From a virus, in IMG/VR virus record IMGVR_UViG_3300042731_004843, positions 32,001-96,000 of that record: a stretch of DNA of 64,000 nucleotides; one strand, given 5' to 3'. Below the pieces are notes generated by a model. That model did no database searches, had not been told where the DNA came from, and saw only the letters and a program-made list of their open reading frames with translations. Every line of letters starts with the position of its first letter. Positions within the stretch are counted from its first letter, which is position 1. A program made the position numbers and the translations under genes. This document shows, piece by piece, positions 822 to 53,151 of this stretch.

Positions 822-1094
822 ATGCATGAGGCTAGTATGCAGGCGCTTCAAAGTGAGCTGGAGAAAATAGCCAAGACGAAGGGGAGCAGGCGCCTTGCGG
901 AAGCTATGTTTGGTAGGCTTCGTGCAGCGAGGGGAGGCGGCGTTAAGGGCAGCGAAGTGGGCGCGTTCAGGAAGTTGCGTAGGGCGAACTACGGACCATC
1001 GGAAGCGGCGGGAGCTATCGATAAGGCTAGATGGCGCGGCGATCAGTACGTGAAGGTGCCTGAAGGTTACGGCCATCGCTACATAGATTTTTAG
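822..1094 (+). CDS. small basic protein with ELEKIA leader (putative head-internal protein)
   Basis: MHEASMQALQSELEKIA leader shared with ORFs at 47783, 56866 and 57950. Confidence 0.6.
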   Translation: MHEASMQALQSELEKIAKTKGSRRLAEAMFGRLRAARGGGVKGSEVGAFRKLRRANYGPSEAAGAIDKARWRGDQYVKVPEGYGHRYIDF

Positions 1095-1103
1095 GAGAGC
1101 ACT

Positions 1104-1427
1104 GTGTCCAAGGTCTGGGCTTGGTTGAAGAAAAACTGGAAGTGGTTGATCCTCCCGCTCTGGTTGGTGTCGCTACTCTTAGTCTGGTTCCTCAGCGGCG
1201 GTAAGAGCACCCTGTTCCCTCCGTCCGGTACCACGGATGAGGCTGCCGATGAGGCCATCGCGGCCAAAGACAAGGCCATCGCGGACTTCAGGGCTCGATT
1301 GGATGATCTGCACAAGAAGGCGGAGGAGAGACTGAAGAATGCCTCCGAAGAGCAGATCAAAGAGTATGAGGAGCTCAAAGACAAGCCCGTGGAGGACGTG
1401 GCCAAGTGGATCGACAGCCTCTCGTAG
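1104..1427 (+). CDS. membrane-anchored coiled-coil protein (i-spanin-like)
   Basis: N-terminal TM helix followed by a charged helical domain; AGGAG RBS. Confidence 0.45.
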   Translation: MSKVWAWLKKNWKWLILPLWLVSLLLVWFLSGGKSTLFPPSGTTDEAADEAIAAKDKAIADFRARLDDLHKKAEERLKNASEEQIKEYEELKDKPVEDVAKWIDSLS

Positions 1428-1436
1428 GACTTCCTG

Positions 1437-4400
1437 ATGCGACTCAAGACCGCATTCGAGTGGGCGGCGACAGGACCCAACAGGGGTGAGCGCGTACACG
1501 ATGCTCCCGTACTGTGGCGGCCCGGCAAACTGAAGCGGTCGGATTTCCAACCTGCCGCAGGGATCAATCCCGATGTAGCCAGGGGTGTTGCTCGAGAGCC
1601 GCAAGAGAAGGTCTCCATATTCGATGGGGACGGTACCAAGCTGATGCCCCACCTACGCGCCATCCACAAGCTGGGCGGCATCTCTGCCAGTGAAGTGGGG
1701 ATTGAAGACCTGGACGGCTTCAAGACCACCGGCAGGCACTACGCCAGACAGGCGCAAAGGGCCTTTAGCGACAAGCCCGTAGATGCTGGTCCTGGCTACG
1801 GGGCAGACCACGAGAGCAATAGCACGGCCGGAGAAGGCAACGAGCCCGATACTTCAGGGGAAATTCCTATCGAGGATCCGCAGGACAGCACACCTCTGCG
1901 CGGACATCTACGTAATATCAGGGGGTTAAAGAAGCAGGGGGCTGGTGTGCTGTCTGGGGAGCTGCTGGCTGGGCTGCCCAGGATAGATGTCATCGCTGCC
2001 GAGCAACAGCGCCAGCTGCTATCCAGGGCCGTCCACGAGGCCCGTAGCCGCGGCGGGGAGCTCAGAGGGGCCCAGGAGCCCTCAGCTCTACCTCTGGCCG
2101 GTGAGGGGGCTCTAGAGGGCGCTCAGTATGTCAGGCTGTCAGAGGCCGATGTAGACGCCATCAATGCCCGCCTAGCCCGCCAGGCTATGGAGAAGAGTTC
2201 GAGTTGGGATCCGCGGCTCAAATCCGTCTCTGTGACTGGCTGCGTCAAACTGGCAGAGCCGGCGCCCCGTTTGCGCACAAAGCTATTGCCCCACCAAGAG
2301 CGGGTAGTTGAGAAGCTAAAGGGGCGGCCGGGACTGGTAGTGGCTCATGGGTTGGGATCGGGCAAGACGCTGAGTTCCATAGCCGCTGCTGTACAGCTGG
2401 AGCCGGACAGGACCAAGGTACTGGTTCCGGCGTCTCTCAGGGCCAACTACCAGAAGGAGCTGGACAAGCACGTAGAAGGTACCCTGCCCATAGAGGTGGG
2501 CTCTCTACAGGGTGCGGCCGCACGCGGGGAGGTGCCGCGTGCAGACCTACTGGTGGTAGATGAGGCGCACAGAGGCAGGAACCCGCAGTCCAAAACGTAC
2601 CAGATGATCCAAGGCGCCGAGGCCAAGAAGCGCCTGATGTTGACTGCGTCACCTACCTACAACCGGCCGTCTGACGTAGCCACTCTGGTAAACATGGCTG
2701 CTGGCGATAGGGTCATGCCCATGGGTAAGGCCTTTGATGAGCGGTACATCGCGCAGCCCAAGAAGGGTATCTGGGGCCTGCTCCCGTTCTCTAGAAAGCA
2801 GGAGGGCTTGAAGCGCAAGGGAGAGCTCGGCAAGGCTTTGTCGGAGTGGGTGGACTACCACAAGTCTGGGGGCAAGGGGTTTCCAGATGTGATGGAGGAG
2901 CGCCACGCGGTCAAGATGACCAAGCGCCAGACGCAGCTTCACGATGCTGCGTGGGGACAGCTCTCTTTGTTGTCCAAGATGCGTCTGCGCCGCGGGCTGC
3001 CTCCCGACAAGCAGGACCTCTCCAAGATCAACAACTTCCAGTCTCAGACCCGGCAGATCTCCAGTACTGAGTCGCCGTACACTAAGAAGGGGCGGGGCGA
3101 GGTATCTCCTAAGATCGTGAAGGCTGTAGGGCTCCTGGACACAGAAGCCAGGGCGAACCCTGATCACAAGGCGCTGGTCTACTCTAACTACTTGGGCACC
3201 TTGAGAGACTACTCTAAGGAGCTGGAGAAGCGGAAGGTGCCCCACGCCATATTCTCCGGCCAGCAAAAGATGCGGGACCGCAAGCAGATGGTGGAGGACT
3301 ACAACGCCGGCAAACTGAAAGCCCTGCTGGTATCGTCTGCTGGAGGGGAGGGGCTGGACCTGAAGGGCACCAGGCAGGTCCAGGTACTCGAGCCGCACTG
3401 GAACGTAGAGAAGCTGAAGCAGGTGGAGGGCCGGGCCATCCGCCGCGGTTCCCACACGCACCTGCCGAAAGACCAGCAGAAGGTACTGCTGCAGAGGTTC
3501 GAGTCCTATCCACGTGGAGGCATCTTCAGAAAGCGCCGCGGTGTAGAGCAGGTGCTGGGCGACATGGCTGCCAATAAGGAGAGGCTGAACCAGGAGATGC
3601 TGGGGCTGATGGAAAAGAGCGCAGAGCCACCACCCCCAGAAGGCGTCTCCGCCAAAGAGTGGGACGAGATACTGGACAACAAGGCCAGTAAGCCGCGTCC
3701 CCTGCCCGAGGTCATAACCAAGGACCGGCTTCGTGATCCTGTTGTCCAGCCACGCGACCTTATCCGGCGGCAGGAAACCCGGATGGAAAAGAGCGCGAAG
3801 CGCAAGTCCTGTTTTGATGAGTCCGTGAGAATAGCCGTAAAGAACCCACAGCTTACGCTAATGAAGGGGGATCCTTTCAAGGGCTCTGGAGACAGGGCCC
3901 ACTTCTGGTTGGAAGACAAGGACGGAAAGATCACCGACCCTACTGCGGGACAGTACCCGAAAAGTACGAGAGTCTATACGGGTGGACGACCAGTCAGCTT
4001 GAGTAGGAATCGTGATGCAGTAGAAAGAGCTCTGCAGAAAAGAGCATTCAAGCTGCAGGGACAGACCGAAGTGCAAGGCATTCCTGTAGCCATCGAGAAC
4101 CGCAAGGGGTCTGTACGGAAGGGCAAAGATCCGGACGGCAACGAGTGGCGTACCAAGATGCAGAACCCGTACGGGTACATCAAGGGCACCAAGGGAGCAG
4201 ATGGGGAAGAGGTAGATGCCTACGTGGGCCCGGACAAGGAAGCCCCCAAAGCGTTCGTCGTACACCAGCGAGACAAAGAGACCGGTGAGTATGACGAGGA
4301 CAAGGTCATGCTGGCCTTCAAGTCCAAGGCCGACGCCAAGAGAGCCTTTCTTGCACACTACGACAGCCCCAAGTTCCTCGGACCCATCAGTGCGGTACCC

Positions 4401-5093
4401 ATGGAGCGTCTGCGGGAGCTAGTAGAGAGCAAGAAGAGGCTGGTCAAGATCTCTTTCGCCGTGCCGGTTGTAGAGGACAAAGGTTACCAGAAGAAGGTAC
4501 GCCGGAGATTCGATAAACTGACCAAAGCGCTGGCACGTCACGGGGACCCAGTGGGCACAGGGCACAAGAGGATCGTCATCCCCAAGCGTGTTATGAAAGA
4601 GGATGACCTTGTTGGGCAGCTGGGGTTCGTTCCAGTCAAGGTGGCCATCCCGGAGGCCGGGCAGTCCCGCTTTGCCAGTTTTAGGCACCCGGACAATCTA
4701 TTCCACCTGCACGAGCACGGTGATGCGTGGGTCATGCACAAAGATGAGCACCCTGCGTCCACCATGCTGGTGAAGAAGTGGCGTATGGCCAGAGAGGCCG
4801 CTAAGAGCGCCACGGGCAAGAGTCAAGCTGAAGTGAAGGCGGCTCTCAAGGCTACGGGCGGGAAGCTCAAGCCGGTCGGGGATTTCATCAGAGGCCTGCC
4901 GCACGTGGTCACGGAGGGTGTTCCTGGAGCGTACTACTACGCCAAGGGGCAGATCTTAAAGACCAAGGGTATGCGGGAGAGGGTAGAAGAAGCTGTACCC
5001 AACGCGTACAAGCGCCAGGTGACGAAGTGGATAGAGCTAAAAAAGGCCGCAAGTGCCGGCTACGCCGATCTCGGTAGCCTAGTTCAGGAGTGA
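1437..5093 (+). CDS. polyvalent protein: SNF2 helicase + Cys-His-Asp domain + InPase-like domain + His-rich domain
   Basis: HGLGSGKT, DEAH, TASP, GGEGLDL, QVEGRAIR (SNF2 motifs); SC..HFW..DPT; IENRKGSVR..YGYI..DGEEVD..YDEDK. Confidence 0.8.
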   Translation: MRLKTAFEWAATGPNRGERVHDAPVLWRPGKLKRSDFQPAAGINPDVARGVAREPQEKVSIFDGDGTKLMPHLRAIHKLGGISASEVGIEDLDGFKTTGRHYARQAQRAFSDKPVDAGPGYGADHESNSTAGEGNEPDTSGEIPIEDPQDSTPLRGHLRNIRGLKKQGAGVLSGELLAGLPRIDVIAAEQQRQLLSRAVHEARSRGGELRGAQEPSALPLAGEGALEGAQYVRLSEADVDAINARLARQAMEKSSSWDPRLKSVSVTGCVKLAEPAPRLRTKLLPHQERVVEKLKGRPGLVVAHGLGSGKTLSSIAAAVQLEPDRTKVLVPASLRANYQKELDKHVEGTLPIEVGSLQGAAARGEVPRADLLVVDEAHRGRNPQSKTYQMIQGAEAKKRLMLTASPTYNRPSDVATLVNMAAGDRVMPMGKAFDERYIAQPKKGIWGLLPFSRKQEGLKRKGELGKALSEWVDYHKSGGKGFPDVMEERHAVKMTKRQTQLHDAAWGQLSLLSKMRLRRGLPPDKQDLSKINNFQSQTRQISSTESPYTKKGRGEVSPKIVKAVGLLDTEARANPDHKALVYSNYLGTLRDYSKELEKRKVPHAIFSGQQKMRDRKQMVEDYNAGKLKALLVSSAGGEGLDLKGTRQVQVLEPHWNVEKLKQVEGRAIRRGSHTHLPKDQQKVLLQRFESYPRGGIFRKRRGVEQVLGDMAANKERLNQEMLGLMEKSAEPPPPEGVSAKEWDEILDNKASKPRPLPEVITKDRLRDPVVQPRDLIRRQETRMEKSAKRKSCFDESVRIAVKNPQLTLMKGDPFKGSGDRAHFWLEDKDGKITDPTAGQYPKSTRVYTGGRPVSLSRNRDAVERALQKRAFKLQGQTEVQGIPVAIENRKGSVRKGKDPDGNEWRTKMQNPYGYIKGTKGADGEEVDAYVGPDKEAPKAFVVHQRDKETGEYDEDKVMLAFKSKADAKRAFLAHYDSPKFLGPISAVPMERLRELVESKKRLVKISFAVPVVEDKGYQKKVRRRFDKLTKALARHGDPVGTGHKRIVIPKRVMKEDDLVGQLGFVPVKVAIPEAGQSRFASFRHPDNLFHLHEHGDAWVMHKDEHPASTMLVKKWRMAREAAKSATGKSQAEVKAALKATGGKLKPVGDFIRGLPHVVTEGVPGAYYYAKGQILKTKGMRERVEEAVPNAYKRQVTKWIELKKAASAGYADLGSLVQE

Positions 5094-28841: not shown

Positions 28842-31800
28842 ATGGCGCGTCTTTCCCCGGAAGAGAGCTTCGAAATTCTCAAGGACCGGGTCGCAGAGAC
28901 AGTCGGCGGGCTCTTCCCGATCGTAGGGAAGAAGCACACACTGGAACTGGGACAGGTCGACGTCAACGACAGGCTTCATATAGACGACATCCGTTCACAG
29001 AAGGAGGCCAAGCTGGGTAGCCGGACTTGGGCCGTCCCTGTGGAAGCTAAGGTCGTCTTACGAGACAACGACACAGGCAAGAGGGTGGATGAGCAAAAAC
29101 TCCGCCTCATGAGCTTGCCCAAGCACACCAGGCGCTACTCCCACATCGTCGATGGCCAGGAGTACCAGATCGACAACCAGTGGCGGCTGAAGTCCGGGGT
29201 CTACGCTCGAGTGAAGGACAATGGGGAGCTGAAGTCAGAGTTCAACCTGGCCAAGGGCAGGGGCTTCAGCTTGGGGTTCGACCCCAAGAACCGCCAGTTC
29301 CACATGTCGTACGGCACCTCCAACATACCGCTGGCCCCGCTGCTGCAAGAGATGGGTGTGCCACAAGCCAAGATACAGGAGCAATGGGGCTCTGCTATTG
29401 CCCAAGAGAACGATAAAGACGTAGAGCAGGCAGTACTGAAGTTCTACAAAGCCTCTACGGGTAAGAAGGCGGACGACTACGAGCAGGCGCGGCAGTACAT
29501 GAAGGACACGCTGACCGCGACAGAGCTGCGCCCAGACACTACGAAGGTCACGCTGGGCAAAGGGTACAAGTCGGTGACTGGGGACGCTTTGATGGATGCG
29601 TCTACCAAGCTGCTGCGCATATCCCAGGGTAAAGCAGAGCCAGATCCCAGAGACTCCTTGATGTTCAAGGACCTGCACAGCACGGAGGACTTTTTCGCTG
29701 AGCGGATCCAAAAGAGTGGTCGGGACATCACCCGGCGCATACAAAACACTCTAGATCGGAAGAAGCGTGTCAGCGACATCGTCGGCCCGGACGTCTTCAA
29801 TCGCCCCATCAGGACTATGTACCGCACTTCCCTGGCGAATGTCCCAGATCAAACCAACCCCTTGGAGATGATGTCTGGGCAGATGAAGACCACCATCACA
29901 GGCGAGGGAGGCATCAAGAGTTCGCACGCCATCACTGAGGACGCCAAGCTAGTCGACCCATCACACCTCGGGTATTTGGATCCGATACACACGCCGGAGG
30001 GGGCGTCCACAGGCGTGTCCCTGCGCATGCCTATCGGCGTGAAGAAGAAGGGCCACGATGTCGCCGTCAAGATGTTCAACGTCAAGACAGGCAGACTGGA
30101 GGACGTCAATCCAGAGAAGGCCATGAACTCCACTGTCGTCCTGCCTGACCAAGTTAGGTGGCAGGACGGCAAGCCTACGCCGGCCGGCAAAACGATCAAG
30201 ATGAGTGGGCCAGGTAATGAGATCGTCGAAGGGCCCATGAAGCAGGCGGACTACATCATGCGGGACCCCATACAGATGTTCTCCATGGCATCTAATCTGG
30301 TCCCTTTCGTGGCAGCAGACCACCCGAACCGCAGCACCATGGCGGGGAGGCACATGGAGCAGGCAATACCGCTACAACGGCGCAAGGCCCCCTTGGTGCA
30401 GAGTGTAGCGGGCACCAAGACTTTTGAGCGGGTGATGGGTGATTACGCCGGCCACACCACGCGCTTTGCTGGGGAGGTCGTGGGAATCAAGAAAGACGCC
30501 GTCGTCATCAAAGGAGACGATGGCAAGAATCATGAGGTTCAGCTATACGATCACTTCCCACTCAACGACGATAAAGGCTTCCTCCACTCGACTCCTACGG
30601 TGAAGGTTGGGGACAAGGTTAAAAAGGGCCAGCCGATAGCGGACACCAACTTCACAGATGGTGGGGCCCTAGCTCTAGGCACCAACCTCAAAGTCGGATA
30701 CATGCCCTACAAAGGGTACAACTTTGAGGACGGCATCGTGATCAGTGAAGGTGCCGCAAAGGAGTTGTCCAGCGAGCACCTTTACCGCAAGACCCTACAA
30801 CGAGACCGGCAGCACGTGCTGGACAAGAAGAAGTACCAGGCGTACGCGCCAGATGCCGTAACTCGAGAGCAATCAGACAAGCTCGATGATGAAGGGGTCA
30901 TCAAGCCAGGGCAGGTAGTGTCTCCGGGTGATACCCTGATCGCCGCACTACGCGAGAAGAAGGACACCAAGGAAGATCGCGAGCTCGCACGTATCCACAA
31001 GTCTCTAGTCCGGCCGTACACTGATGCCAGCGTGAAGTGGGAGGCTGACCACCCGGGGGTGGTGCAGGAGGTGGTAAAGAAGGGCAAGAAGTTGGCTGTC
31101 CACGTCAAGACTTTGGAGGCCGCTGAAATCGGGGACAAGATCGCCGGCCGTCACGGCAACAAAGGCATCATCACGAGCATTTTGCCGGATGACGAGATGC
31201 CACAGACCAAAGACGGCAAACCACTACAGATTCTGATGAACCCCACTGGCGTGCCCGGCCGTACTAACCTCGGCCAAGTGCTGGAGACGGCTGTCGGCAA
31301 GATAGCTGAGAAGACTGGTAAGCCGTACACGGTCAAGAACTTCCAGCCTAATGAAGATCTACACGCCAAAGTTACCGCAGATCTGAAGGCGCACGGGCTA
31401 CCTACTGACGGAAAAGAAGAAGTCGTGGACCCAAAGACCGGTAGGGTTTTGGGCAGGATCCTGACGGGGCCACAACATGTGGTCAAGTTGAAGCACCAAG
31501 TAGAGAAAAAGATGATCGCCAGGGCTGGTGGACCTGGCTATGCGTATGACAGGAACCTGGTACCCAAGGGAGGGGGCCCGCACGGGGCGCAGGCTTTGGG
31601 CACTCTCGGCCTCTACTCCATGCTGGCGCATGGCGCTAAGGCCAACTTGAGGGAGATGCAGACTCTCAAGAGTGACGCAGGCCAGAGTGATGAATTTTGG
31701 GCCGCCCTACAGGCTGGGGAAGCGCTGCCGGCGCCACGTCCCACGTTCGCGTACAAGAAATTCACCAGCTATCTCAACGCGCTAGGGGTCAACGTTAAGA

Positions 31801-34800
31801 AGGACGGCAACAATCTCTCACTCATCCCGTTCACCGATAAGCAGGTGGAGGAGATGAGTAATGGGCAGATCAAAGACGCAGCCAGGATGGTGCGGGCCAA
31901 GGACCTACGCCCAGAGACTGGAGGGCTGTTCGATCCCAAGACCACTGGCGGTGTTGACGGTACGAAGTGGAGCCACATTCGTCTGGCCGAGGCTATGCCC
32001 AACCCCTTGTTCGAGCGGGCGATACAGAGCCTCACCGGACTAGATCAGAAGAAGTACACGGATCTGGTTACTGGTAGGGCGGCTTTGGATAAGAGCGGCA
32101 ACCTGACCTCCAACTTGGACGCCGGCGTAACCGGTGGTGCTGCAATAGATAGTCTGCTCAAGAAGGTCGACACCAAGACGGCACTGGAACAGGCGCAGAA
32201 GGAGCTGGACAACCCCAACCTGAAGGGCAACCGCCTCGACCAAGCCAACAAGAAGGTCAAGTTCCTGCGGGCGCTAGATTCCGCAGGACTGAATGCCCGG
32301 GACGCGTACATGATGCAGAACGTACCGGTCCTGCCGCCGTCCATGCGCCCCATCTCCCAGCTACCTAATGGCGATCTCAATTTTGACGACGTCAATGGCC
32401 TCTACAAGGGGCTGCACCTAACGTCGTCCCAATTAAAGAAGCAGCAGTCTAGTAAGTTGCTGCCGCCAGAAGAGATGCAAGAGACCAGGGAGGAACTCTA
32501 TGATGGGCTACGTGCATTAACTGGTTTGGGCGGCAATCCAAGGCAGGAGTTCCGCGGCATCCTGGACGTGATCGGAGGCAAAAGACTGGAGACGTCTGGT
32601 GGCCGGGCAACTGGTAGAAAGGTGGGCTCACCAAAGGAGGGCTTCTTTCAGAAGAAGTTGGTGCAGAGAAAGCAGGACCTCTCTATGCGGTCCACCATCA
32701 TCCCCGAGCCGGCACTAGCTTTGGACGAGGTGGGGCTGCCCAGACGTGCGGCGCTTGAGCTCTACAAGCCATTTGTGGTTAGGGAGCTGCGCAACATAAC
32801 TGGCGCTTCCCCATTGGAAGCGCAGAAGAAGATCGGAGAGGGCGGACAGTTGGTAAACAGGGCGCTTGAGCGTGTGGTAGAAAGCCGCCCCGTCTTGTTG
32901 AAGAGAGACCCGGCACTGCACAAGTACAGTGTGCAGGCCTTCAAGCCGCGCATTGTGGGCGGCAAGGCTGTCCAGATCCACCCGCTGGTGACCTCCGGCT
33001 ACAACGCAGACTTTGACGGGGACACGATGGCCGCCTTCGTGCCCGTGAGTAATGAGGCCGTTGAGGAAGCCAAGAAGATGTACCCCTCGAGGAACCTTTT
33101 CAGCCCCTCGACTGGCAGCTTGATGTACTCCCCTACGCTGGAGACCCAGCTTGGTCTGTACGGCATCACGCAGCAAACCGGAAAGAAGACAGGCAAGCAG
33201 TTCAAGGACATCAAAGAGGTCCACTCCGCTTTGAACAAGGGCCAGGTAGGCCTCAATGATACTGTCCGAGTGGGTGGCCTGACGTCCACGACGGGTAAGT
33301 TTCTGGTGGGGGAGGCGCTACCAGAAGATATGCGCAAGGATTTCCTCAAGAGGAAAGACCCCCTGGACAAGGCCGGGCAAAAAGAGCTGCTTACAACACT
33401 GGCCAAGCAGCACCGCAATGACTACGGGGAGGTGGTCAACAAGCTAAAGGACCTGGGCAATCGCTGGTCGACGGATACCGCGTTCTCTATTGGTCTGGAC
33501 GACATCAAGCCGGAGACACGGACGAGAGATAAGATCTTGAAGGCCGCGGAGAAGCGAGTGGCTGCGGCAGGCGGCAAACCAGAAGCGGCCATACGGGAAT
33601 TCGACAAAGCCACGCAGGAGATGGCCAAAGAGTTCGCCAAGATGCCAGAGGGCCGTAGCGCGCTGCTCACTATGAACCGTTCCGGTATCAAGCCCTACAA
33701 CGACACTCTTCGGCAGATCAAGATGGCCCCCATGCTGATCGCTAACGCCAAAGGAGAGGTCATCCCCACTCCGGTACGCAAGTCCTACGCAGAGGGCCTG
33801 GATTTGGCAGACTACTGGACCTCGATGAGTGGGGCACGCAAGGGCATCATCCAGAAGGTACAACAGGTCCAAGAGCCTGGGTACTTGTCCAAGCAGGTTA
33901 TGAATTCTGTGATGAACAACACGATCGCGGACAATGACTGCGGTACGGACAAGGGTATTGCGCTGCCGACAGACGAGAAGGATATCCTAGACAGGTACAC
34001 GGCTGCGCCAGTACGGGCTGGAAAGAAGACCATACCCGCAGGTACGTTGGTCACTCCAGAAGTACGGAACACGTTGCGTAACAACAGGGTAGGGCGGGTG
34101 GTGGTGCGCTCTCCTTTGCGCTGCCAGCACGGCCCAGGTCTCTGTAAGAAGTGTTACGGCCTTACTGAAGACGGAAGAGAGCCGGAAGTAGGCTTGAATG
34201 TGGGCGTGTTGGCCGGACAGGCACTAGGTGAGCGCGCCACCCAGCTGGCTATGAAATCCTTCCACACGGGGGGCACTGTAGCGACCAAGGAGGGCCTGGT
34301 AGATGAGTTTCAGCGGGTAAAGAACTTGCTGCTCTTCCCCAAGACTCTGCCGGGATCTGCTACTCTGTCTACCGTGAACGGCAAGGTAGACAAGATAGAG
34401 AAGGACCCTGCCGGTGGACACAACGTGTTCATCTCTGGGGAGAGGCACTACGTTCCCCAGAAGCGGGGCGTGCCCATGATGGGCGGAAAGACATTGCGCA
34501 GAGGGGCCCAGGTTAAGAAGGGTGCCGCGATCTCCGGGGGGGTGGTGAACCCGCACGATATGCTGCCGCTGACTGGTGTGGAGCCCGTACAGGGCTACCT
34601 ATCCAATGAGCTGCACAACATCTACGGGCCTCATGGTATCCGCCGCAGGAATACCGAAGTGGTGGTCAAGTCGCTAACGAATCTCACCAAGGTGGATGAT
34701 CCCGGAGACCACCGTGAGTTCATCCGTGGCGACTTTGCGCCACAAACACTGGTCGCGAATATGAACAGGCGAGACAAAGGCAAACGGCCTGTACGCCACA

Positions 34801-35000
34801 CACCAATCCTCAAGGGCGTGGACATGCTACCGCTGGACATGCAAGAGGATTGGATTGCTAGAATGAATCACCAACGACTGTCTCAGACAGTCGTGGCGGC
34901 AGCGCAGCAGGGGTGGACCAGCAAGCTGCATGGTAAGCACCCTATTCCTCCGGTTGTTTATGGTGCAGAGCTGGGCAAAGCAAAACCTGGAGAATACTAA
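28842..35000 (+). CDS. rpoBC: single-chain DNA-directed RNA polymerase, beta-beta' fusion
   Basis: Beta motifs: SHLGYLDPIHTPEG, GYNFEDG, GDKIAGRHGNKG; beta' motifs: PVLLKRDPALH, YNADFDGD, GARKG, GQALGERATQLAMKSFHTGG. Confidence 0.95.
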   Translation: MARLSPEESFEILKDRVAETVGGLFPIVGKKHTLELGQVDVNDRLHIDDIRSQKEAKLGSRTWAVPVEAKVVLRDNDTGKRVDEQKLRLMSLPKHTRRYSHIVDGQEYQIDNQWRLKSGVYARVKDNGELKSEFNLAKGRGFSLGFDPKNRQFHMSYGTSNIPLAPLLQEMGVPQAKIQEQWGSAIAQENDKDVEQAVLKFYKASTGKKADDYEQARQYMKDTLTATELRPDTTKVTLGKGYKSVTGDALMDASTKLLRISQGKAEPDPRDSLMFKDLHSTEDFFAERIQKSGRDITRRIQNTLDRKKRVSDIVGPDVFNRPIRTMYRTSLANVPDQTNPLEMMSGQMKTTITGEGGIKSSHAITEDAKLVDPSHLGYLDPIHTPEGASTGVSLRMPIGVKKKGHDVAVKMFNVKTGRLEDVNPEKAMNSTVVLPDQVRWQDGKPTPAGKTIKMSGPGNEIVEGPMKQADYIMRDPIQMFSMASNLVPFVAADHPNRSTMAGRHMEQAIPLQRRKAPLVQSVAGTKTFERVMGDYAGHTTRFAGEVVGIKKDAVVIKGDDGKNHEVQLYDHFPLNDDKGFLHSTPTVKVGDKVKKGQPIADTNFTDGGALALGTNLKVGYMPYKGYNFEDGIVISEGAAKELSSEHLYRKTLQRDRQHVLDKKKYQAYAPDAVTREQSDKLDDEGVIKPGQVVSPGDTLIAALREKKDTKEDRELARIHKSLVRPYTDASVKWEADHPGVVQEVVKKGKKLAVHVKTLEAAEIGDKIAGRHGNKGIITSILPDDEMPQTKDGKPLQILMNPTGVPGRTNLGQVLETAVGKIAEKTGKPYTVKNFQPNEDLHAKVTADLKAHGLPTDGKEEVVDPKTGRVLGRILTGPQHVVKLKHQVEKKMIARAGGPGYAYDRNLVPKGGGPHGAQALGTLGLYSMLAHGAKANLREMQTLKSDAGQSDEFWAALQAGEALPAPRPTFAYKKFTSYLNALGVNVKKDGNNLSLIPFTDKQVEEMSNGQIKDAARMVRAKDLRPETGGLFDPKTTGGVDGTKWSHIRLAEAMPNPLFERAIQSLTGLDQKKYTDLVTGRAALDKSGNLTSNLDAGVTGGAAIDSLLKKVDTKTALEQAQKELDNPNLKGNRLDQANKKVKFLRALDSAGLNARDAYMMQNVPVLPPSMRPISQLPNGDLNFDDVNGLYKGLHLTSSQLKKQQSSKLLPPEEMQETREELYDGLRALTGLGGNPRQEFRGILDVIGGKRLETSGGRATGRKVGSPKEGFFQKKLVQRKQDLSMRSTIIPEPALALDEVGLPRRAALELYKPFVVRELRNITGASPLEAQKKIGEGGQLVNRALERVVESRPVLLKRDPALHKYSVQAFKPRIVGGKAVQIHPLVTSGYNADFDGDTMAAFVPVSNEAVEEAKKMYPSRNLFSPSTGSLMYSPTLETQLGLYGITQQTGKKTGKQFKDIKEVHSALNKGQVGLNDTVRVGGLTSTTGKFLVGEALPEDMRKDFLKRKDPLDKAGQKELLTTLAKQHRNDYGEVVNKLKDLGNRWSTDTAFSIGLDDIKPETRTRDKILKAAEKRVAAAGGKPEAAIREFDKATQEMAKEFAKMPEGRSALLTMNRSGIKPYNDTLRQIKMAPMLIANAKGEVIPTPVRKSYAEGLDLADYWTSMSGARKGIIQKVQQVQEPGYLSKQVMNSVMNNTIADNDCGTDKGIALPTDEKDILDRYTAAPVRAGKKTIPAGTLVTPEVRNTLRNNRVGRVVVRSPLRCQHGPGLCKKCYGLTEDGREPEVGLNVGVLAGQALGERATQLAMKSFHTGGTVATKEGLVDEFQRVKNLLLFPKTLPGSATLSTVNGKVDKIEKDPAGGHNVFISGERHYVPQKRGVPMMGGKTLRRGAQVKKGAAISGGVVNPHDMLPLTGVEPVQGYLSNELHNIYGPHGIRRRNTEVVVKSLTNLTKVDDPGDHREFIRGDFAPQTLVANMNRRDKGKRPVRHTPILKGVDMLPLDMQEDWIARMNHQRLSQTVVAAAQQGWTSKLHGKHPIPPVVYGAELGKAKPGEY

Positions 35001-42956: not shown

Positions 42957-43025
42957 ATACTATGTCGTCCCCAGGCGTCCTTCAACCTGGGTATGTTGAC
43001 AGTACCGGAAGCACGCACCTATGAT
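42957..43025. promoter_or_regulatory. divergent sigma70-like promoter pair
   Basis: Minus: TTGAAG-N17-TAGTAT (42985-42957); plus: TTGACA-N18-TATGAT (42996-43025). Confidence 0.6.
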
Positions 43026-43042
43026 TGACCAGAGGTGAGCAG

Positions 43043-43960
43043 ATGAGCGATCCCAGTGCTATCCCCCTGGGCCTGCAGCAGCAAGAGGCCGCCAGAAATA
43101 TTGATCCGGAACAGCTAGAGATGATGGGTAAGAGGGCGGCAGCTCTGTACACACAGGGTACGCCACTCAACGAGGCCGTCGTCTCGATAGTGAAGGAGGC
43201 ACGGCTGGCGCCTGAACAGGTCAAGAGGGTGTGCGAATTCGCCAATACCTCGGCTTATCTAGAGGAGTTCGAGAAGGCCGGGGAGGTCAGGAACGTGGAG
43301 TTCCAGGGTGGTCTGGCTGACCCGGGGGTGGTGCTGAAGGAGCTCAATGATGGCTCGGTGCCAGCTGTGCACCAGGTCTCCACGGAAGACTATGCTCCCC
43401 CCTCCGGATCCTACAAGACCGCTAGCGCTGATGTGTCCCTCCTGGCTGAGGCCTTCGGAGCGGTAGCAGGCCTGGAAAAGACCGCTAGCGTGAACCACTC
43501 TTCCCGAGCAAATCCAGTAGAGGCCGTCCATGATCTACGTGTGCGGCTGGAGGGTGCACGGGATCATTTGATGAGCAAGCTCTCCTCCTCAGAGATCGTC
43601 CTCAATGAGGCCAAGATCTTACTGAAGGAGGCGGCCGCCGAGGCAGTGCTGCAGGGCATGCCGATGGGAGATATCGTCCGGGCCTGGTGCAACTACGGTG
43701 ACGCCAATCAGATCAAAGAGGCGACGGTCATGGTCAGGGACCATCTCCGTGCCCGTAGGATACTAGGGGCCGAACAGTTCGCGGAGTCCATGTCCAAGGA
43801 GGCCTCTGCCGGAGTCATCGCCAACCCGGAGCACCCACTGGTGGACAACTTCCTAGTGCTCAATAAGATCGCCTTCGAGCATGCGAAGCTCGAGGAGGGC
43901 GTACGTATCCTTGGCGACCGTCTGGGAGACGTGCAGTCCTCACTTAGAGGGCTACTATGA
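43043..43960 (+). CDS. KxA-rich head-module protein
   Basis: KRAA, KEA, YKTAS, EKTAS, KEAAA, KEAS, NKIA. Confidence 0.6.
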   Translation: MSDPSAIPLGLQQQEAARNIDPEQLEMMGKRAAALYTQGTPLNEAVVSIVKEARLAPEQVKRVCEFANTSAYLEEFEKAGEVRNVEFQGGLADPGVVLKELNDGSVPAVHQVSTEDYAPPSGSYKTASADVSLLAEAFGAVAGLEKTASVNHSSRANPVEAVHDLRVRLEGARDHLMSKLSSSEIVLNEAKILLKEAAAEAVLQGMPMGDIVRAWCNYGDANQIKEATVMVRDHLRARRILGAEQFAESMSKEASAGVIANPEHPLVDNFLVLNKIAFEHAKLEEGVRILGDRLGDVQSSLRGLL

Positions 43961-44268
43961 GCATGGAGAAGGTAGCGCGCGCCTTCCAGATCTTGCAGGG
44001 TATGGAGAAGATGGGCGTGAACATCCTTGGCGGCCTGTCCGAAGCCGCCAAGTCGTTTGACGCGCTCGGTAAAGGCATGGCCGGGGCCCTAAAGGCTCGA
44101 GGGCATGAGACGGCAGCTGGTGTTGCGCGTGTGTTGCCCTACGTGGGAGCAGCCTACGCCGGGAAGAAAGCGTACGAGTCCGGCCCGGCTCAGCGGGTGC
44201 GTGCGTGGCACCAGCGGAGACAGTACGAGAAGGCCATGCGGCAGGCTCAGCAAGGAGGCTACTACTGA
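43957..44268 (+). CDS. small basic Gly/Ala protein with EKMG leader
   Basis: ATGA coupling; MEKVA..MEKMG. Confidence 0.55.
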   Translation: MSMEKVARAFQILQGMEKMGVNILGGLSEAAKSFDALGKGMAGALKARGHETAAGVARVLPYVGAAYAGKKAYESGPAQRVRAWHQRRQYEKAMRQAQQGGYY

Positions 44269-44990
44269 TGTCCAATCCAGTAGACGAATTCCTGCAGATG
44301 AAAGAGAAGCAGGCTGGGTTCCTGTCCAACTTGGGCAAAGCCATGAGAGGGCTAGGACAGGCATTTAAGGGCGGGCTGGCACAGGAGACGTTGAAGGCCG
44401 ACACCACACTGACTATGGGACAGGCACTAGCCCGAGGTGCGGGGCAAGCGCTGCTTCCAGCTGCCGTCACGGCCGCAGCTGCCGGCATAGCCACGGGAGC
44501 AAGCAGGGGGATAGGCGCAGTGATGGATCGGTTTGGTAAGGCTAAGGACTACCAGGCCATGATGCAGGTACACCCCACCTTGCGGGACAAAGATCCTGGA
44601 CAGGCACAACTCTACTTCAACTCTTTGCGCAGCACGGCACCTACACTGGCGAAAGACCCACTAGTTGCGGGGTCTTTCGTGCGGAACATGATGGAGCTGC
44701 AGCCCTCAGAAGGTCCGGCCGTACCGTTGGCTACTACCAAGCTGCTGGCAGATGCGCAGAAGTCTTTGTCGCAGGCTCGTGGTGGCCGCGGCCCGATCGC
44801 AGAGGCGTTCATGACTGGCCGCTCACCTATGTTTGAGATGCCCAGGCAGCAACCTGAGCGCCCACAACTAGTTGGTGAGAGGCGTTTCGGCCCGATTCCT
44901 GGGGAGAAGATCTACGAGGAGGGCAAGATCGTAGGCCAAAAGCCGTCCACATGGGGTCCGGTGGGAGAAACCGTGAAGGACTACGGCTAG
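44268..44990 (+). CDS. protein with KEKQA leader and hydrophobic segment
   Basis: AAGGAGG RBS; MSNPVDEFLQMKEKQA. Confidence 0.6.
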   Translation: MSNPVDEFLQMKEKQAGFLSNLGKAMRGLGQAFKGGLAQETLKADTTLTMGQALARGAGQALLPAAVTAAAAGIATGASRGIGAVMDRFGKAKDYQAMMQVHPTLRDKDPGQAQLYFNSLRSTAPTLAKDPLVAGSFVRNMMELQPSEGPAVPLATTKLLADAQKSLSQARGGRGPIAEAFMTGRSPMFEMPRQQPERPQLVGERRFGPIPGEKIYEEGKIVGQKPSTWGPVGETVKDYG

Positions 44991-44993
44991 CCT

Positions 44994-47039
44994 ATGATCG
45001 TCAAGGTCTGCCAGTTCAAGGCTCGACGAGAACGAGGTGAGCGTCTCGTTGAAGTCTTCCAGCCCGGAGACATGGAGAAGGCGGCCGCCTTCTTTGGTGG
45101 GGAGCAGCAGTCTGCCGTGGGGCACCCGTACAGGGGTGGTATGGCTAAGACCGCGGCGCCCATGTTGCCCGAGGTGCAGGCCTACCTAGAAAAGTTACGC
45201 CCCGATTCCAACAGAATCTACGTCCTCGTCAATGCCCTTGGAGCTGGAGAGTTCTGGGGCTCGAACATCAACGGGGACTACTTCCCTGAAGCCTCCTTGA
45301 TCCACAAAGGCCCAGTCTACGGGTACGAAACCTTCTATGGGGCCTTCCCTTACAAACACCATGTCAACAAGGACCCCAGCAGGTCCTTCGGTAAGGTGGA
45401 GCTAGCCGTCTGGAATGACCGCATGAAGCGTGTAGAGCTCGTGGTCATGATCGACAGGGCTCTGGCCGCAAGGTTCGGTGCGCAGGATGTCTGCGACAAA
45501 CTGGACCATGGGCTGTTCCCAGACGTCAGCATGGGGTGCAAGGTACCCTACGACCTCTGCTCCAAGTGCCTAGACTGGGAGAAGTACCGCCGGGCACAGT
45601 CCACCTTTGATCCTACTCGCCACCGTTCGGTGGGGGCCGCCGTACTGGAGTTCCACAAGAAGAATCCTATCCGTGGGCTCTCTGTCACTCGCGATGACTA
45701 CTGTGAGCACCTCAAGACGATGCTCAACCGCATCCTTGGGGACGGTGTTAAGGTCTACGCGATCAACGACTACCCCCGCTTCTTCGACATCTCGTTCGTG
45801 TTCATAGGCGCGGACAAGACAGCAAAAGTCATGGCAAAGTTGGCTTCGGCACATACTGGGGGGGCCATATATGTTGTCGAGCCATCTTGGCAGGTGGCGG
45901 AGAATCTGGGGTACGAGCAGCCCTCCACGGAGAAGGAGCTCGAGCTGGAGAAGGCGGCCGCCGTGCAGTGGATCGCACGTGGAGGTCCCAAGCTCCGGCA
46001 GGCAGCTAGAACCGTGACGAAGGGGGTTCGGGGTAAAGCTACGACAGTCAAGGAGATCGGGGGAGAAGCAGCCGAACGTGTCCTGGAGCGTAAAATGGAG
46101 CGCACGAAGGGCAAGGAGAAGCTGTCAGGCATCGAGGCGGTGCTGGCCAAGCTGCAAGAAAAAAGGGCTTCCCAGTCCAAGGGCGCGGAGATTATAAAGG
46201 AAGTCGTTCCGACACAATTCGGTAGTAAGGCTGTGCCTTTGGAAGGATCAAAAAGACCAGATCTACCTGATGAGGTCCTAGACGCTCTGGGCGGATGTCC
46301 ATTGAGCGAGGCCCTCTCCACTCCCACCACGATGGGCATGGTACTGAAGCCCCGCGAGTTCCAGCGCATCACCATCATCCATGTTGGCAAGAAGCCCCTG
46401 GCCGACGCACTGGACAAAGACGGGAAGTTGTTTGCTCCTGTAGAAGGATCGGACACCTCTGTACCAATGGGCGGAGAGCACTTCAGCGAGATGCTGAAGA
46501 AGCTCCTGTTGCCGTTTCTCGAAGATCGCAGCTGCCTAGAGCCCATCGCCAAGCGCAGACTCATCCGGGTCACGGTCGGCAAGCAGCCGGAGCACGAAGA
46601 CCCGGATCGGGAATATGTGCAAGATGACCCCTTCCTACAGAAGATCTCCTCAGCCTATAATGGCTACCTAGATCGCTTCGTGGACTGTTGGAGGGACGCG
46701 CCAGTGATCGTAGATCAGCACGCTGATCTTTGGGAGGCGGTGTTCAGGGAGGGCGTGGGAGACGGCTTCTCGAAGGAGGCTGCGGGTACAAGGGTGAATC
46801 CGGCTGTGGTTTTGGCAGGTATCGGGGCCGGATACGGACTGAGCGAGTACGCACGATGGCAGCGAGAAAAAGCCAGGATGGGGAGTCGGGCGCCAGTGGG
46901 TCCTGTCATGGACACGCTAGCGGAGTACCCGAAGCTCTTGGCAGCGCTGGGCGGTCTCGCTGCTTTAAAACAACAAGGTTCCAAAATCCCGGACAGATTG
47001 TTCCACGGCATCAAAGGTGCGATCACGATGGGTAAATAG
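44994..47039 (+). CDS. prohead maturation protease-containing protein
   Basis: NINGDYF..KHH..G.V..VELV..DVSMGC..FDISFV..GAD pattern of HK97/T4-type head proteases; upstream of scaffold and MCP. Confidence 0.7.
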   Translation: MIVKVCQFKARRERGERLVEVFQPGDMEKAAAFFGGEQQSAVGHPYRGGMAKTAAPMLPEVQAYLEKLRPDSNRIYVLVNALGAGEFWGSNINGDYFPEASLIHKGPVYGYETFYGAFPYKHHVNKDPSRSFGKVELAVWNDRMKRVELVVMIDRALAARFGAQDVCDKLDHGLFPDVSMGCKVPYDLCSKCLDWEKYRRAQSTFDPTRHRSVGAAVLEFHKKNPIRGLSVTRDDYCEHLKTMLNRILGDGVKVYAINDYPRFFDISFVFIGADKTAKVMAKLASAHTGGAIYVVEPSWQVAENLGYEQPSTEKELELEKAAAVQWIARGGPKLRQAARTVTKGVRGKATTVKEIGGEAAERVLERKMERTKGKEKLSGIEAVLAKLQEKRASQSKGAEIIKEVVPTQFGSKAVPLEGSKRPDLPDEVLDALGGCPLSEALSTPTTMGMVLKPREFQRITIIHVGKKPLADALDKDGKLFAPVEGSDTSVPMGGEHFSEMLKKLLLPFLEDRSCLEPIAKRRLIRVTVGKQPEHEDPDREYVQDDPFLQKISSAYNGYLDRFVDCWRDAPVIVDQHADLWEAVFREGVGDGFSKEAAGTRVNPAVVLAGIGAGYGLSEYARWQREKARMGSRAPVGPVMDTLAEYPKLLAALGGLAALKQQGSKIPDRLFHGIKGAITMGK

Positions 47040-47124: not shown

Positions 47125-47763
47125 ATGGACGAGCAACTCGCACAGATCTACGGCACCGGACAGCCCGTGGCCCACGATGAGGAAGACCTTCAGAAGACCG
47201 CGGCCGCTGAGCTGCTGGTCAAGCTGGCTGAATCAAATGGCGTCTCTCTGGATCAGTTCTCTGATGAGGACATCCAGGGGATGATCACCGAGCTGTACCA
47301 GGACAAGGAAGCCGCGTCCAAGTGCAGTGAGGGTATGCCGCCCTTCCCGCCCAAGAAGGACGAGAAGGAAGACAAGAAGGACAAGGGTGAGGACGAGGGC
47401 GACGAGAAGAAGGAGAAGGAAGCTCAGGCCAAGTTCGCAGAGGCCGACTTCCTGGGCCGCGTCATGGCGCACGCCATGGTGCAGGAGCTCAACAACATCG
47501 ACAAGACGGCATCGCCCCAGCAGCAAGAGAAGCAGGCGGCAGCTCCCGAGCAAGGAGCTGCCCTGGAGCAGCTCGCTCAGCAGCGTGCGTGGGAGATGGC
47601 CAAAGAGGCCGGCTACGTGGATGAGCAGGGCAACCTAATCACCCCGCAGCAGCCACCGAAAGAGAAGACTTCCGCCCTGAAGCAGGCCGTGGATTTCCGC
47701 GCTCTCCAGCTCTTGGAGGAGGCGGGTCTGCCTGTCGAGTGGAAGGATCAAGGCAAGGAGTAG
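47125..47763 (+). CDS. acidic KxA-rich scaffold-like protein
   Basis: KTAA, VKLA, KEAA, KEA, KTAS, KQAA, KTSA; EADFLGRVMA. Confidence 0.6.
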   Translation: MDEQLAQIYGTGQPVAHDEEDLQKTAAAELLVKLAESNGVSLDQFSDEDIQGMITELYQDKEAASKCSEGMPPFPPKKDEKEDKKDKGEDEGDEKKEKEAQAKFAEADFLGRVMAHAMVQELNNIDKTASPQQQEKQAAAPEQGAALEQLAQQRAWEMAKEAGYVDEQGNLITPQQPPKEKTSALKQAVDFRALQLLEEAGLPVEWKDQGKE

Positions 47764-47782
47764 TAGGATAGGGGCGTAGGCC

Positions 47783-48091
47783 GTGCAAGGTATTAACATG
47801 TCGGCGTTTTATCAGGAGATCGAGAAGATCGCGGCTCAGGCCAGGTCTTCTACTAGCGTGTGGTCGTCCAAGACAGTTGGGGCGGCCCGCTCTAAGTCTA
47901 CCGGGCAGCAGACTGCCAAGGCGCCGACCACTCCTAGCAGCCTAAACGTCAAGATCCCCTCGCCCGGTAAATACGGGCCGAGACAAAACTACTCTCAACC
48001 GAACGTCGTGACCGCACCTCCGGCCAACCCCATGCAGGGAGCGGGAGCACGCAATACCCCGCCACCTAATGTGGTTTTCGGTGTGCGGTAA
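47783..48091 (+). CDS. small protein with EIEKIA leader
   Basis: MQGINMSAFYQEIEKIA followed by Ser/Thr/Pro-rich basic region. Confidence 0.6.
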   Translation: MQGINMSAFYQEIEKIAAQARSSTSVWSSKTVGAARSKSTGQQTAKAPTTPSSLNVKIPSPGKYGPRQNYSQPNVVTAPPANPMQGAGARNTPPPNVVFGVR

Positions 48092-48104
48092 CAAGGAGGC
48101 CCAA

Positions 48105-49454
48105 ATGGAGTTCACGCTTCAAGAGCTCGTTCAGCAGACGCTGGCCGAAGCCGAAAATCGGGTAAAGACGGCCGCGGCCGCCAAGCCCGAGGATGAGAAG
48201 CAGGGGTCTCCGGCTAAGACGGATCCTTCGAACACTCCGAGCACTGCTCCGGAGCGTAACGAGGAAGGTATCAGCGAGAAGACCGCCACGGCGTTCGTGG
48301 AGAAACTAGCGAGCGCGGTGCAGTACCTCAACGAGAACTACCTCGAGAAGGATGCCGTCGGCAAGCCGGAGCCACCAACAGCCCACACCCCGCCACAGGC
48401 GGACTCGGGCGTCGGGGCGGGCAAAGGCACCGGCGCCATGCCTACCAACGTGGACAAGCCCACTTCTGGTATGCAATCTGAGGAGACTGGCCAGGCCACT
48501 CCTCAGCAGCAGCCGCCAACCAACCCCGGACAAGACGTCAAGTCCCCCGGGCAGGTGAATCCAGCCACCGCCATGCAGACGGACATGAATGACCGTCCCG
48601 GCGGCTCGGAAGACTGGACCAACACGGACAAGATGAAGCAGGCAGGTCTGGCTGCATTGCGTGAGGCAGCAGCCAGTCAGACGAAAGAGGCCAAGGTCTA
48701 CGACGTCGCTGCCAAAAAGGGCCTGGGCAGGGTCGGTCAGCTGTTGTCCGGCTCTCGCGCAAAGGGCCTGAAGCTGATGGAGCAGATGGGTGGGGCAGCC
48801 AAGGGCGCAGCCAAGTCTGAGGCCCGCAAGGTAATGGCCACCAGGGCCGGTGCCGGTGGCCTAGCTGCTGTAGGTGCCGGAGCGGCCGCTGCGAAGAAGC
48901 TCAAGGGCAAGAAAGACGAGTCCACCAAGGAAGCCCAAGTAGCTCGCATCCTCGACATCATGAGCAAGATGGCGGCGGACGCGGAGAACCCGGCAAAGAT
49001 CGGTGCTAAGGCGACCAACCCGCACCAGTCCAGCCCGGAAGGGGCATCTGAGTCCGAGAAGGACGTGCCCTCCCAGCCGGGAGAAGTGTCCAAGCAGGAA
49101 TCGATGGTCGGCTCCAACCAGTCGGCTATCGACTACACCAAGGGTCAAGCGAAGGCCGTGGCCAAAGCACGGATGCGTGAGGTTCTAGACGAACCAGCTC
49201 AGAAGAAGTCGACGGACCCGGTCCTTCATAACAACCTCACTGCTACTGGCAAGGCCGGTGTGAAGATCGCATCGCCCGAAGCCGGAGCGGCAGCGAGGGC
49301 CCTCCTCGAGAAGATCGCGGAGGAAGGGGCAAGCCCAGATGCAGGCCCCGAGCAGAAGGAGAGAGCTTCTAAGCTGCAGGAGCTCTTGCAGAATCGTCAG
49401 GAGTCCCAGCAGGGGGCCCTGGAACCCAACATGCCCGTTAGCGGCGGGTACTAG
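48105..49454 (+). CDS. low-complexity KxA-rich scaffold/core protein
   Basis: AAGGAGG RBS; KTAA, KTA, KLAS, KDA, KQA, KEA x2, KMAA, KIAS, EKIA. Confidence 0.6.
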   Translation: MEFTLQELVQQTLAEAENRVKTAAAAKPEDEKQGSPAKTDPSNTPSTAPERNEEGISEKTATAFVEKLASAVQYLNENYLEKDAVGKPEPPTAHTPPQADSGVGAGKGTGAMPTNVDKPTSGMQSEETGQATPQQQPPTNPGQDVKSPGQVNPATAMQTDMNDRPGGSEDWTNTDKMKQAGLAALREAAASQTKEAKVYDVAAKKGLGRVGQLLSGSRAKGLKLMEQMGGAAKGAAKSEARKVMATRAGAGGLAAVGAGAAAAKKLKGKKDESTKEAQVARILDIMSKMAADAENPAKIGAKATNPHQSSPEGASESEKDVPSQPGEVSKQESMVGSNQSAIDYTKGQAKAVAKARMREVLDEPAQKKSTDPVLHNNLTATGKAGVKIASPEAGAAARALLEKIAEEGASPDAGPEQKERASKLQELLQNRQESQQGALEPNMPVSGGY

Positions 49455-49463
49455 GAGGACGCC

Positions 49464-53082: not shown

Positions 53083-53151
53083 ACAATGGTAAGTACGATA
53101 ATGGTTGCTATCCTTGCTGTGCAGTCGTACGCTACTTCTATGGAGGTAGCT

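Follow-up and report, generated by a model that had tools for sequence, protein, structure and literature searches.

A phage multi-enzyme protein whose module borders carry a Lys-x-Ala/Ser motif shared with head proteins: putative processing during head maturation

The DNA analysed here (the window, 64,000 nt) comprises bases 32001-96000 of a 108-kb viral record in IMG/VR, IMGVR_UViG_3300042731_004843, whose completeness CheckV puts at 58%. Near the start of the window lies the gene for P0001, a protein made up of several modules. The original prediction was that the domains of P0001 are bounded by K-x-A/S sites and that a packaged precursor is cut into separate enzymes during head maturation, in the manner of a viral polyprotein. 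The 1218-residue plus-strand open reading frame (ORF) on which this prediction rested does exist, and its product can be divided as follows.

1437-5093, plus strand: P0001, a 1218-aa multi-module polyvalent protein (ORF, translation and Pfam)
1437-2255, plus strand: N-terminal region, residues 1-273, of no known family (MEKSS and VKLA sites)
2256-3623, plus strand: SNF2-family helicase module, residues 274-729, ending at MEKSA, 3609-3623 (Pfam; projection of stand-alone homologues)
3624-3797, plus strand: 58-aa spacer, residues 730-787, ending in a second MEKSA, 3783-3797 (alignment and model)
3798-4046, plus strand: C..HFW..DPT (Cys/His/Asp) module, residues 788-870, ending at QKRA, 4035-4046 (library search)
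4047-4454, plus strand: InPase (PF18823) module, residues 871-1006, ending at VKIS, 4443-4454 (Pfam, model, fold search)
4455-5054, plus strand: His-rich C-terminal domain, residues 1007-1206, ending at KKAAS, 5040-5054 (alignment and model)

In residue coordinates the two MEKSA sites are 725-729 and 783-787, QKRA is 867-870, VKIS 1003-1006 and KKAAS 1202-1206, the last being followed by a 12-residue tail (5055-5090); MEKSS occupies residues 251-255 (2187-2201) within the N-terminal region. The module ends that had been predicted, at the two MEKSA sites and at QKRA, VKIS and KKAAS, are all where they were said to be. The helicase does begin right after VKLA (residues 270-273), but that site spans 2244-2255, and the interval first given for it, 2247-2255, covers KLA only. 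Pfam places SNF2/Helicase_C at residues 285-672 (48.7 bits for SNF2-rel_dom and 56.4 bits for Helicase_C, with cut-offs of 24.9 and 23.5), and helicase motifs I (GSGKT), II (DEAH) and VI can be read in the translation, as befits a member of the SNF2 family. The InPase family PF18823 covers residues 871-995 (E 1.4e-43, 148.5 bits against a cut-off of 26.8), and together with a pyrophosphatase fold in the structural model it bears out the earlier InPase-like label. Pfam searches of P0001 for zincin metallopeptidase, MuF and portal fusions returned no such family at E <= 1. The His-rich C-terminal domain is conserved among homologues.

The N-terminal region contains a conserved stretch, GD-x-TKLMPHLR-x-IHK, at approximately residues 62-78 (approximately 1620-1670), which some homologues carry close to the N-terminus and others (P0006, P0011) at the very C-terminal end; it is a second portable linear motif. 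The spacer opens with a conserved cassette, EPPPP-x-GVS-x-KEWD-x-x-L (residues 730-748, 3624-3680), which is found once only in this genome, varies in position across at least nine homologues, and always has K-x-A directly before it. A single 15-nt string, GATGGAAAAGAGCGC, encodes both MEKSA sites (3609-3623 and 3783-3797), which would be compatible with an origin of the 58-residue spacer by duplication or recombination.

Does the motif coincide with module borders more often than chance would allow? By count, K-x-[AS] is not enriched in P0001, with 20 occurrences seen and 17.0 +/- 3.6 in shuffled versions of the protein, and a repeated 5-mer such as MEKSA arises in 58% of shuffles, so that the repeat alone is not significant. 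Placement is another matter. Six module borders can be defined independently of the motif. Two concern the helicase, namely where homology to leaderless helicases begins and where, at the median, stand-alone helicases have their C-terminus. The others are the point at which homology of the Cys/His/Asp module sets in, the start of the InPase, the dip in model confidence after the InPase, and the last confident helix. All six have a K-x-[AS] within 5 residues, a fit that random placement of 20 sites achieves about once per 100,000 trials (P about 1e-5). Moreover, the interior of the helicase (residues 280-722) contains no K-x-[AS] where 5.8 would be expected (P 0.002), a depletion that suggests selection against sites there. 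The placement of the motif in P0001 is not due to chance.

The same borders recur among homologues. In the 160 proteins of similar length that match P0001, the helicase and/or the InPase occur alongside DNA ligase, GNAT, NUDIX, C39-type peptidase, kinase-like and intein domains; with at least two unrelated enzymatic domains and an architecture that varies among homologues, P0001 is a polyvalent protein. When the closest homologues are aligned (P0003, the closest at full length, shares 77% identity across the best-aligned 60% of the query), the helicase always ends in L-[LM]-E-K-x-A, and the InPase always has K-x-A-[FY]-K-L-Q-G before it and L-V-K-I-S after it. Where there is no inserted module, one K-x-A serves both as helicase end and as InPase start. 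Among 212 distinct 20-residue flanks of helicase and InPase domains, drawn from 117 homologues, K.A ranks first of 400 'a.b' patterns (62% of flanks compared with 11% of background windows), with L.K and K.S next. Each of four flank classes contains K-x-[AS] in 67-87% of its members, compared with 17% of background windows; kinship among the sequences inflates the corresponding P value, although the flanks are nonetheless very diverse. The flank logo reads hydrophobic (-2), E/V (-1), K (0), T/I/K (+1), A/S (+2) and A/E/K/S (+3), and the motif, which in its original K-x-A/S form does mark true module borders, is better written hydrophobic-x-K-x-A/S. Since the distance from motif to InPase core varies from 0 to 17 residues, the motif lies outside the InPase fold. 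Proteins that start directly with the helicase lack it. The expectation that homologues should shuffle their domains at such sites is borne out, with modules shuffling, splitting and fusing exactly at K-x-A/S.

Splitting is best illustrated by a complete relative of 178 kb (G005), whose syntenic locus consists of separate genes: a 159-aa ORF, a 470-aa helicase that is 68% identical to P0001 residues 272-728, an 81-aa ORF, a 291-aa InPase protein and one further ORF. Each opens with a leader of approximately 15-20 residues that ends in E-L-E-K-x-A/G. The stand-alone helicase is the commonest form (758 matches at E <= 1e-30), and 90 of the 110 stand-alone helicases that start with Met have K-x-[ASG] within the 16 residues before the helicase, typically as ...F-F-D-E-L-E-K-I-A. 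When 95 stand-alone helicases of 440-505 aa are projected onto P0001, the Ala/Ser of the leader falls on residues 273-277 and the C-termini fall on 727-733. These are the VKLA and first MEKSA sites, so that, by homology, the joints of the fused protein correspond to N-terminal leader ends. K-x-A/S, in other words, is the end of a leader that resembles the capsid-targeting sequence (CTS) of phage T4 (F-F-x-E-L-E-K-I-A in stand-alone genes) and is not peculiar to P0001.

In P0006, P0007, P0009 and the 81-aa leader-bearing ORF of G005 (L086 2870-3115), a Y-H-G-[ST]-P-R/K-K-L...K-P-R module replaces the spacer. Its Y-H-G-S/T start recalls, as we presume, ADP-ribosyltransferases such as T4 Alt.

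Suppose that the joints are simply relics of the leaders of fused genes, without function in P0001, and that P0001 may act in the cytoplasm. Such a scenario sits well with the clear homology of split and fused forms, with the decay of the upstream part of the leader at internal joints, and with the identical 15-nt string at both MEKSA sites, which hints at recombination or duplication. It sits less well with the joints of diverged fused homologues, where Lys and Ala/Ser are conserved even though the linker around them varies in length and content, with the apparent selection against K-x-A/S inside the helicase, or with the position of the P0001 gene at the end of a late structural block. We consider it improbable.

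An AlphaFold2 model of residues 700-1218 (519 residues, 27 homologues; mean predicted local distance difference test score, pLDDT, 72.6) allows the borders to be compared with predicted structure. The last helicase helix stops at residue 726, just inside the first MEKSA, and a short helix covers KEWDEIL of the conserved cassette. Confidence is low at residues 755-771 and 791-854, with the second MEKSA in a weak helix, and a helix at 856-869 terminates at QKRA. The InPase is confident over residues 870-999 (pLDDT about 90), followed by a dip in confidence at precisely those residues that surround VKIS, 1000-1011; in the C-terminal domain confidence persists to approximately residue 1197, and it is gone past KKAAS. 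The sites are therefore found at exposed helix ends or at confidence dips between confident domains, and no predicted domain crosses a motif in the modelled part, so that the refuting condition set for the original prediction, domains that span the motifs, did not arise. In structure searches with the 519-residue model the InPase is the only fold identified (model residues 179-303 match inorganic pyrophosphatases at Z 6-6.7 and have the oligonucleotide/oligosaccharide-binding fold of these enzymes), the C-terminal domain matching only generic helical hairpins; the ESM Atlas likewise holds no usable match to the C-terminal domain.

The Cys/His/Asp module has no confident fold in the AlphaFold2 model. 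A phmmer search of the full library nevertheless finds 39 proteins that match it at E <= 1e-3 over approximately 70 residues, either small stand-alone proteins or parts of large multidomain ones. The His and Asp are invariant and the Cys, Trp, Pro and Thr near-invariant, a degree of conservation that marks the module as a real mobile domain. Its sole family link is a weak one, to YunG, and YunG-like leads in the ESM Atlas are sub-threshold. Might this module be a small cysteine peptidase that cuts its own polyprotein? The conserved pattern of C, H-F-W and D-P-T recalls, in what we take to be a resemblance, the catalytic triads of transglutaminase-like or papain-like enzymes, and autoproteolysis by zincin domains has been proposed for polyvalent proteins (Iyer 2017, PMC5512222). 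However, neither Pfam nor a profile search against PDB sequences links the module to any peptidase family or fold, model confidence within it is low, P0003 lacks it and keeps the joints, and stand-alone genes and head proteins without it bear the same motif. We regard self-processing of this kind as very unlikely.

The motif is not confined to P0001 and its homologues. Among 109 ORFs of the contig, hydrophobic-E-K-x-A/S occurs 21 times compared with 4.8 +/- 2.0 expected from within-protein shuffles. In an unbiased ranking of patterns across contig ORFs, EK.A comes third of 8000 'ab.c' patterns, after two CxxC patterns, and Q.K.A, L.K.A and M.K.A are among the top six 'a.b.c' patterns. Sites cluster in ORF 43025-43960, in the protease and the scaffold-like ORFs listed below, and in a few others; large tail proteins are almost free of them.

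44994-47039, plus strand: P0125, head-maturation protease, 681 aa (fold search, homologues)
47125-49847, plus strand: scaffold-like head-module ORFs 47125-47763, 47783-48091, 48069-49454 and 49464-49847 (dense conserved hydrophobic-x-K-x-A/S)
822-1094, plus strand: 90-aa ORF just upstream of P0001 (N-terminal leader ends ...LQSELEKIA; the counterpart is a leader-bearing ORF in G005)

Several unrelated small ORFs open with a leader ending in E-K-I-A, and in orthologues of ORF 44205-44990 the form D-E-F-L-x-x-x-K-x-A is common, its Lys and Ala being invariant. A short leader or motif is hence common to several otherwise unrelated head proteins. Across 34 related loci, conservation at many sites reaches 0.9-1.0 against a local identity of only 0.3-0.5; such conserved islands in divergent sequence are the signature of short functional motifs.

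If the motif is a cleavage site, which enzyme reads it? The first 300 residues of P0125 contain a core (approximately residues 55-285, 45156-45848) predicted at pLDDT 80-97. Its best structural match is T4 gp21 (5jbl; Z 8.8, root-mean-square deviation 2.7 Å over 131 of 164 residues). Next come the herpesvirus assemblins, represented by more than 25 structures at Z 5-7.8. His122, His123 and Ser179 are invariant, and the spacing from His to Ser, approximately 55 residues, is presumably like that of T4 gp21. Homologues include gp222 of Salmonella phage Arash and gp19 of Bacillus phage G, the latter bearing the annotation head maturation protease. MEKAA and MAKTA, the second of them 97% conserved, lie in a disordered stretch of 53 residues that precedes the core. 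The core itself ends in GADKTAKVMAKLAS, beyond which there is a C-terminal extension of approximately 400 aa. The phage encodes, in short, a protease of the gp21/HK97/assemblin fold that is itself flanked by the motif, and this layout of sites matches the one known from self-processing gp21-type enzymes. A profile search of P0125 against PDB sequences gave no match, and Pfam S77 and S78 found nothing in five complete relatives.

Between approximately residues 186 and 240, after the S-M-G serine motif, P0125 carries a Cys/His-rich insertion (C-S-K-C ... Y-C-E-H) whose Cys, Ser and His columns are invariant or near-invariant. It could be a zinc-binding insert, which would be unusual for gp21-type proteases. 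From its position ORF 44994-47039 had also been considered as the portal, an assignment rejected on the strength of the protease fold match; two other candidates for the protease, ORF 44205-44990 and ORF 49876-50325, were also discarded.

The motif might still be read without being cut. K-x-A/S helices could be docking or capsid-targeting elements, or flexible linkers, with P0001 packaged and ejected at full length and at most an N-terminal piece removed. There is precedent in the virion RNA polymerase of phage N4, a polyvalent protein that is packaged unprocessed (PMC5512222); nearly all identified cleavages in phage SPN3US remove N-terminal propeptides, and the aromatic/acidic part of the leader is gone from the internal joints of P0001. 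Yet many copies of the core motif recur within the scaffold-like proteins, and others lie on either side of the protease core, which fits degradation and self-processing better, and the sites in P0001 are at exposed helix ends between domains. Because of the conserved sites inside scaffold-like proteins and those around the protease core, cutting fits better than docking alone, and we think targeting without cleavage unlikely.

The phage that carries P0001 is a tailed phage whose contig encodes, on the minus strand, DNA polymerase I, primase, a DnaB-like helicase, a RecA-like recombinase, a Cas4-type nuclease and RusA. It also encodes a large terminase, a major capsid protein (MCP) and a tail sheath. 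IMG/VR contains 328 relatives of the MCP (75-97% identity), from genomes of 178-196 kb. The phage is a myophage of approximately 190 kb and kin of Salmonella phage Arash; Arash (181 kb) and three Vibrio phages are its nearest cultured relatives, Bacillus phage G being a distant one. The P0001 gene is the last large gene before a strand switch, at the end of a plus-strand block of baseplate, fibre and tailspike genes, and is preceded on the same strand by genes for a baseplate-J fusion protein, a PKD-bearing fibre-like protein and a beta-helix tailspike. Just upstream are two small predicted membrane proteins (460-819 and 1104-1427, plus strand), and the same pair is found upstream of the split genes in G005; they may be lysis or membrane-associated genes within the structural block. 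At 28842-35000 (plus strand) a single ORF of 2052 aa matches several RNA polymerase beta/beta'-type PHROGs along its length and may be a fused multisubunit-type phage RNA polymerase. A 277-aa ORF with HNH endonuclease matches lies within the structural block downstream of the capsid gene (53086-53919, plus strand); its counterpart is found in only 2 of 34 related loci, and it is likely a mobile homing endonuclease.

Arash offers a view of a virion. Its gp217 helicase is the best phage match of the P0001 helicase (38% identity; the two phages are 28% identical in the MCP and 34% in the protease domain) and was detected among the virion proteins by 38 unique peptides and 1148 spectra, a level similar to that of the adjacent RNA polymerase beta' subunit (PMC10585845). 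The Arash counterparts of the 2052-aa RNA polymerase are the most abundant virion proteins by spectral count (PMC10585845). The head-module proteins gp218-gp225 of Arash are dense in the motif, with 6-8 hydrophobic-x-K-x-A sites each in gp220, gp222, gp223 and gp225 (L005, Arash 129273-154664), so that the code proposed here is testable in a cultured phage.

Our preferred reading, to which we would assign a probability of roughly 0.6, is that the joints of P0001 are putative sites of cleavage during head maturation. P0001 would be capsid cargo, its fused modules occurring in related phages as separately encoded head-internal proteins, and each joint retaining the end of the N-terminal leader of this lineage, hydrophobic-x-Lys-x-Ala/Ser. 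We infer that the precursor is built into the prohead, where P0125 would cut at or next to the joints as it would cut itself and the scaffold-like proteins, the scissile bond probably lying after the Ala/Ser. The predicted products are a helicase of approximately 456 residues (that of Arash has 472), a 58-residue peptide, the Cys/His/Asp domain, an InPase of approximately 136 residues and a His-rich domain of approximately 200 residues. Once freed, these enzymes would be ejected with the DNA. As the helicase gene of Arash adjoins an RNA polymerase gene, the ejected helicase probably assists the phage's own large RNA polymerase, and the pyrophosphatase-like InPase may remove pyrophosphate or else a nucleotide signal, roles considered by Iyer et al. 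(PMC5512222).

Several observations weigh against cleavage at the joints. Some K-x-[AS] tripeptides lie inside the folded InPase and C-terminal domains, so that the bare tripeptide is insufficient as a signal, and internal joints of P0001 keep only the core K-x-A/S, without the upstream aromatic/acidic part of the leader. The N-terminus of the MCP has neither a leader nor a conserved site. Pfam protease models miss P0125, and Peptidase_S78, S77 and CLP_protease return nothing in the contig. The gp21-type proteases of giant phages characterised so far all cut after Glu, so that Ala/Ser at P1 would amount to a new specificity; what is conserved here is hydrophobic-x-K-x-A/S rather than (L/I/A/S/G)-x-E. 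Finally, Arash gp217 is leaderless yet was detected in the virion preparation, and because that preparation lists 116 proteins, ribonucleotide reductases and primase among them (PMC10585845), carry-over of gp217 from the lysate is possible.

How does the proposed processing of P0001 compare with systems already described? In T4, the loading and trimming of head cargo via a short leader is textbook knowledge. As is proposed for this phage, the T4 CTS (on IPI-III and Alt, and removed by gp21) is a short amphipathic aromatic/acidic leader on unrelated head-internal proteins that ends in a protease site; the protease has the same fold, scaffold proteins contain many sites, and the cargo includes enzymes ejected with the DNA. 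The T4 site, however, is (L/I)-x-Glu, whereas the putative site here is hydrophobic-x-Lys-x-Ala/Ser, and T4 leaders are N-terminal only, whereas here the signal also joins enzyme modules within one polypeptide. The phiKZ gp175 and SPN3US gp245 systems share with the present one a large myophage with a virion-type multisubunit-like RNA polymerase and many internal head proteins, and a self-processing protease with a simple three-residue motif; these enzymes, by contrast, cut after A/S/G-x-Glu, almost always to remove N-terminal propeptides, and no polyprotein of recognisable enzymes has been described there. Herpesvirus assemblin shares its fold with P0125. Assemblin cuts where P1 is Ala and P1' is often Ser ((V/L/I)-x-Ala|Ser), a pattern that resembles the proposed K-x-Ala|Ala/Ser; with Lys at -2 and Ala/Ser at the proposed P1, the present motif is nearer to these sites than to the Glu sites of T4-type enzymes. 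Assemblin is nonetheless a eukaryotic virus enzyme, its motif does not include the Lys of the proposed P3 position, and its substrates are only itself and the scaffold. Arash gp217 differs from the helicase of P0001 in being a stand-alone protein of 472 aa whose gene adjoins that of an RNA polymerase subunit, with no leader and no fused modules. The polyvalent proteins of Iyer et al. (2017, PMC5512222) likewise combine several unrelated enzymatic domains, SNF2 and a hairpin-less clade of InPase included, show rampant domain shuffling and are predicted to be delivered with the DNA. P0001 differs in lacking, by Pfam, a zincin metallopeptidase, MuF or portal domain, and the trans-acting head protease at a linker code is proposed here, not in that study.

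Processing of head cargo by a prohead protease was thus already known (T4, phiKZ, SPN3US), and polyvalent SNF2/InPase proteins had been catalogued. The novelty lies in the Lys-x-Ala/Ser code and in the way it links modules along a chain of recognisable enzymes, with fused and split forms interchangeable. A broader proposal, on which we would lay about even odds, extends to the family of 180-200-kb phages as a whole (more than 300 IMG/VR relatives, Arash and the Vibrio phages): a gp21-fold protease would read a previously undescribed hydrophobic-x-Lys-x-Ala/Ser code whose small P1 residue resembles that of herpesvirus assemblin sites, the F-F-x-E-L-E-K-I-A tag would both load cargo and mark the cut, and P0001 would be a true polyprotein of ejected enzymes. 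Fused and split forms would yield the same mature products under such a code, so that cargo genes could fuse and split freely.

If the joints are cut, this would be the first T4-type phage head protease code with Ala/Ser, not Glu, at the scissile position, and polyvalent phage proteins could be true polyproteins, processed by the capsid protease and not by peptidase domains of their own. Cleavage would also explain the free fusion and splitting of cargo modules in this lineage, and would provide a short portable tag with which foreign proteins might be loaded into the capsids of a cultured phage, Arash. From sequence alone it would then be possible to predict which mature internal proteins hundreds of uncultured large phages contain.

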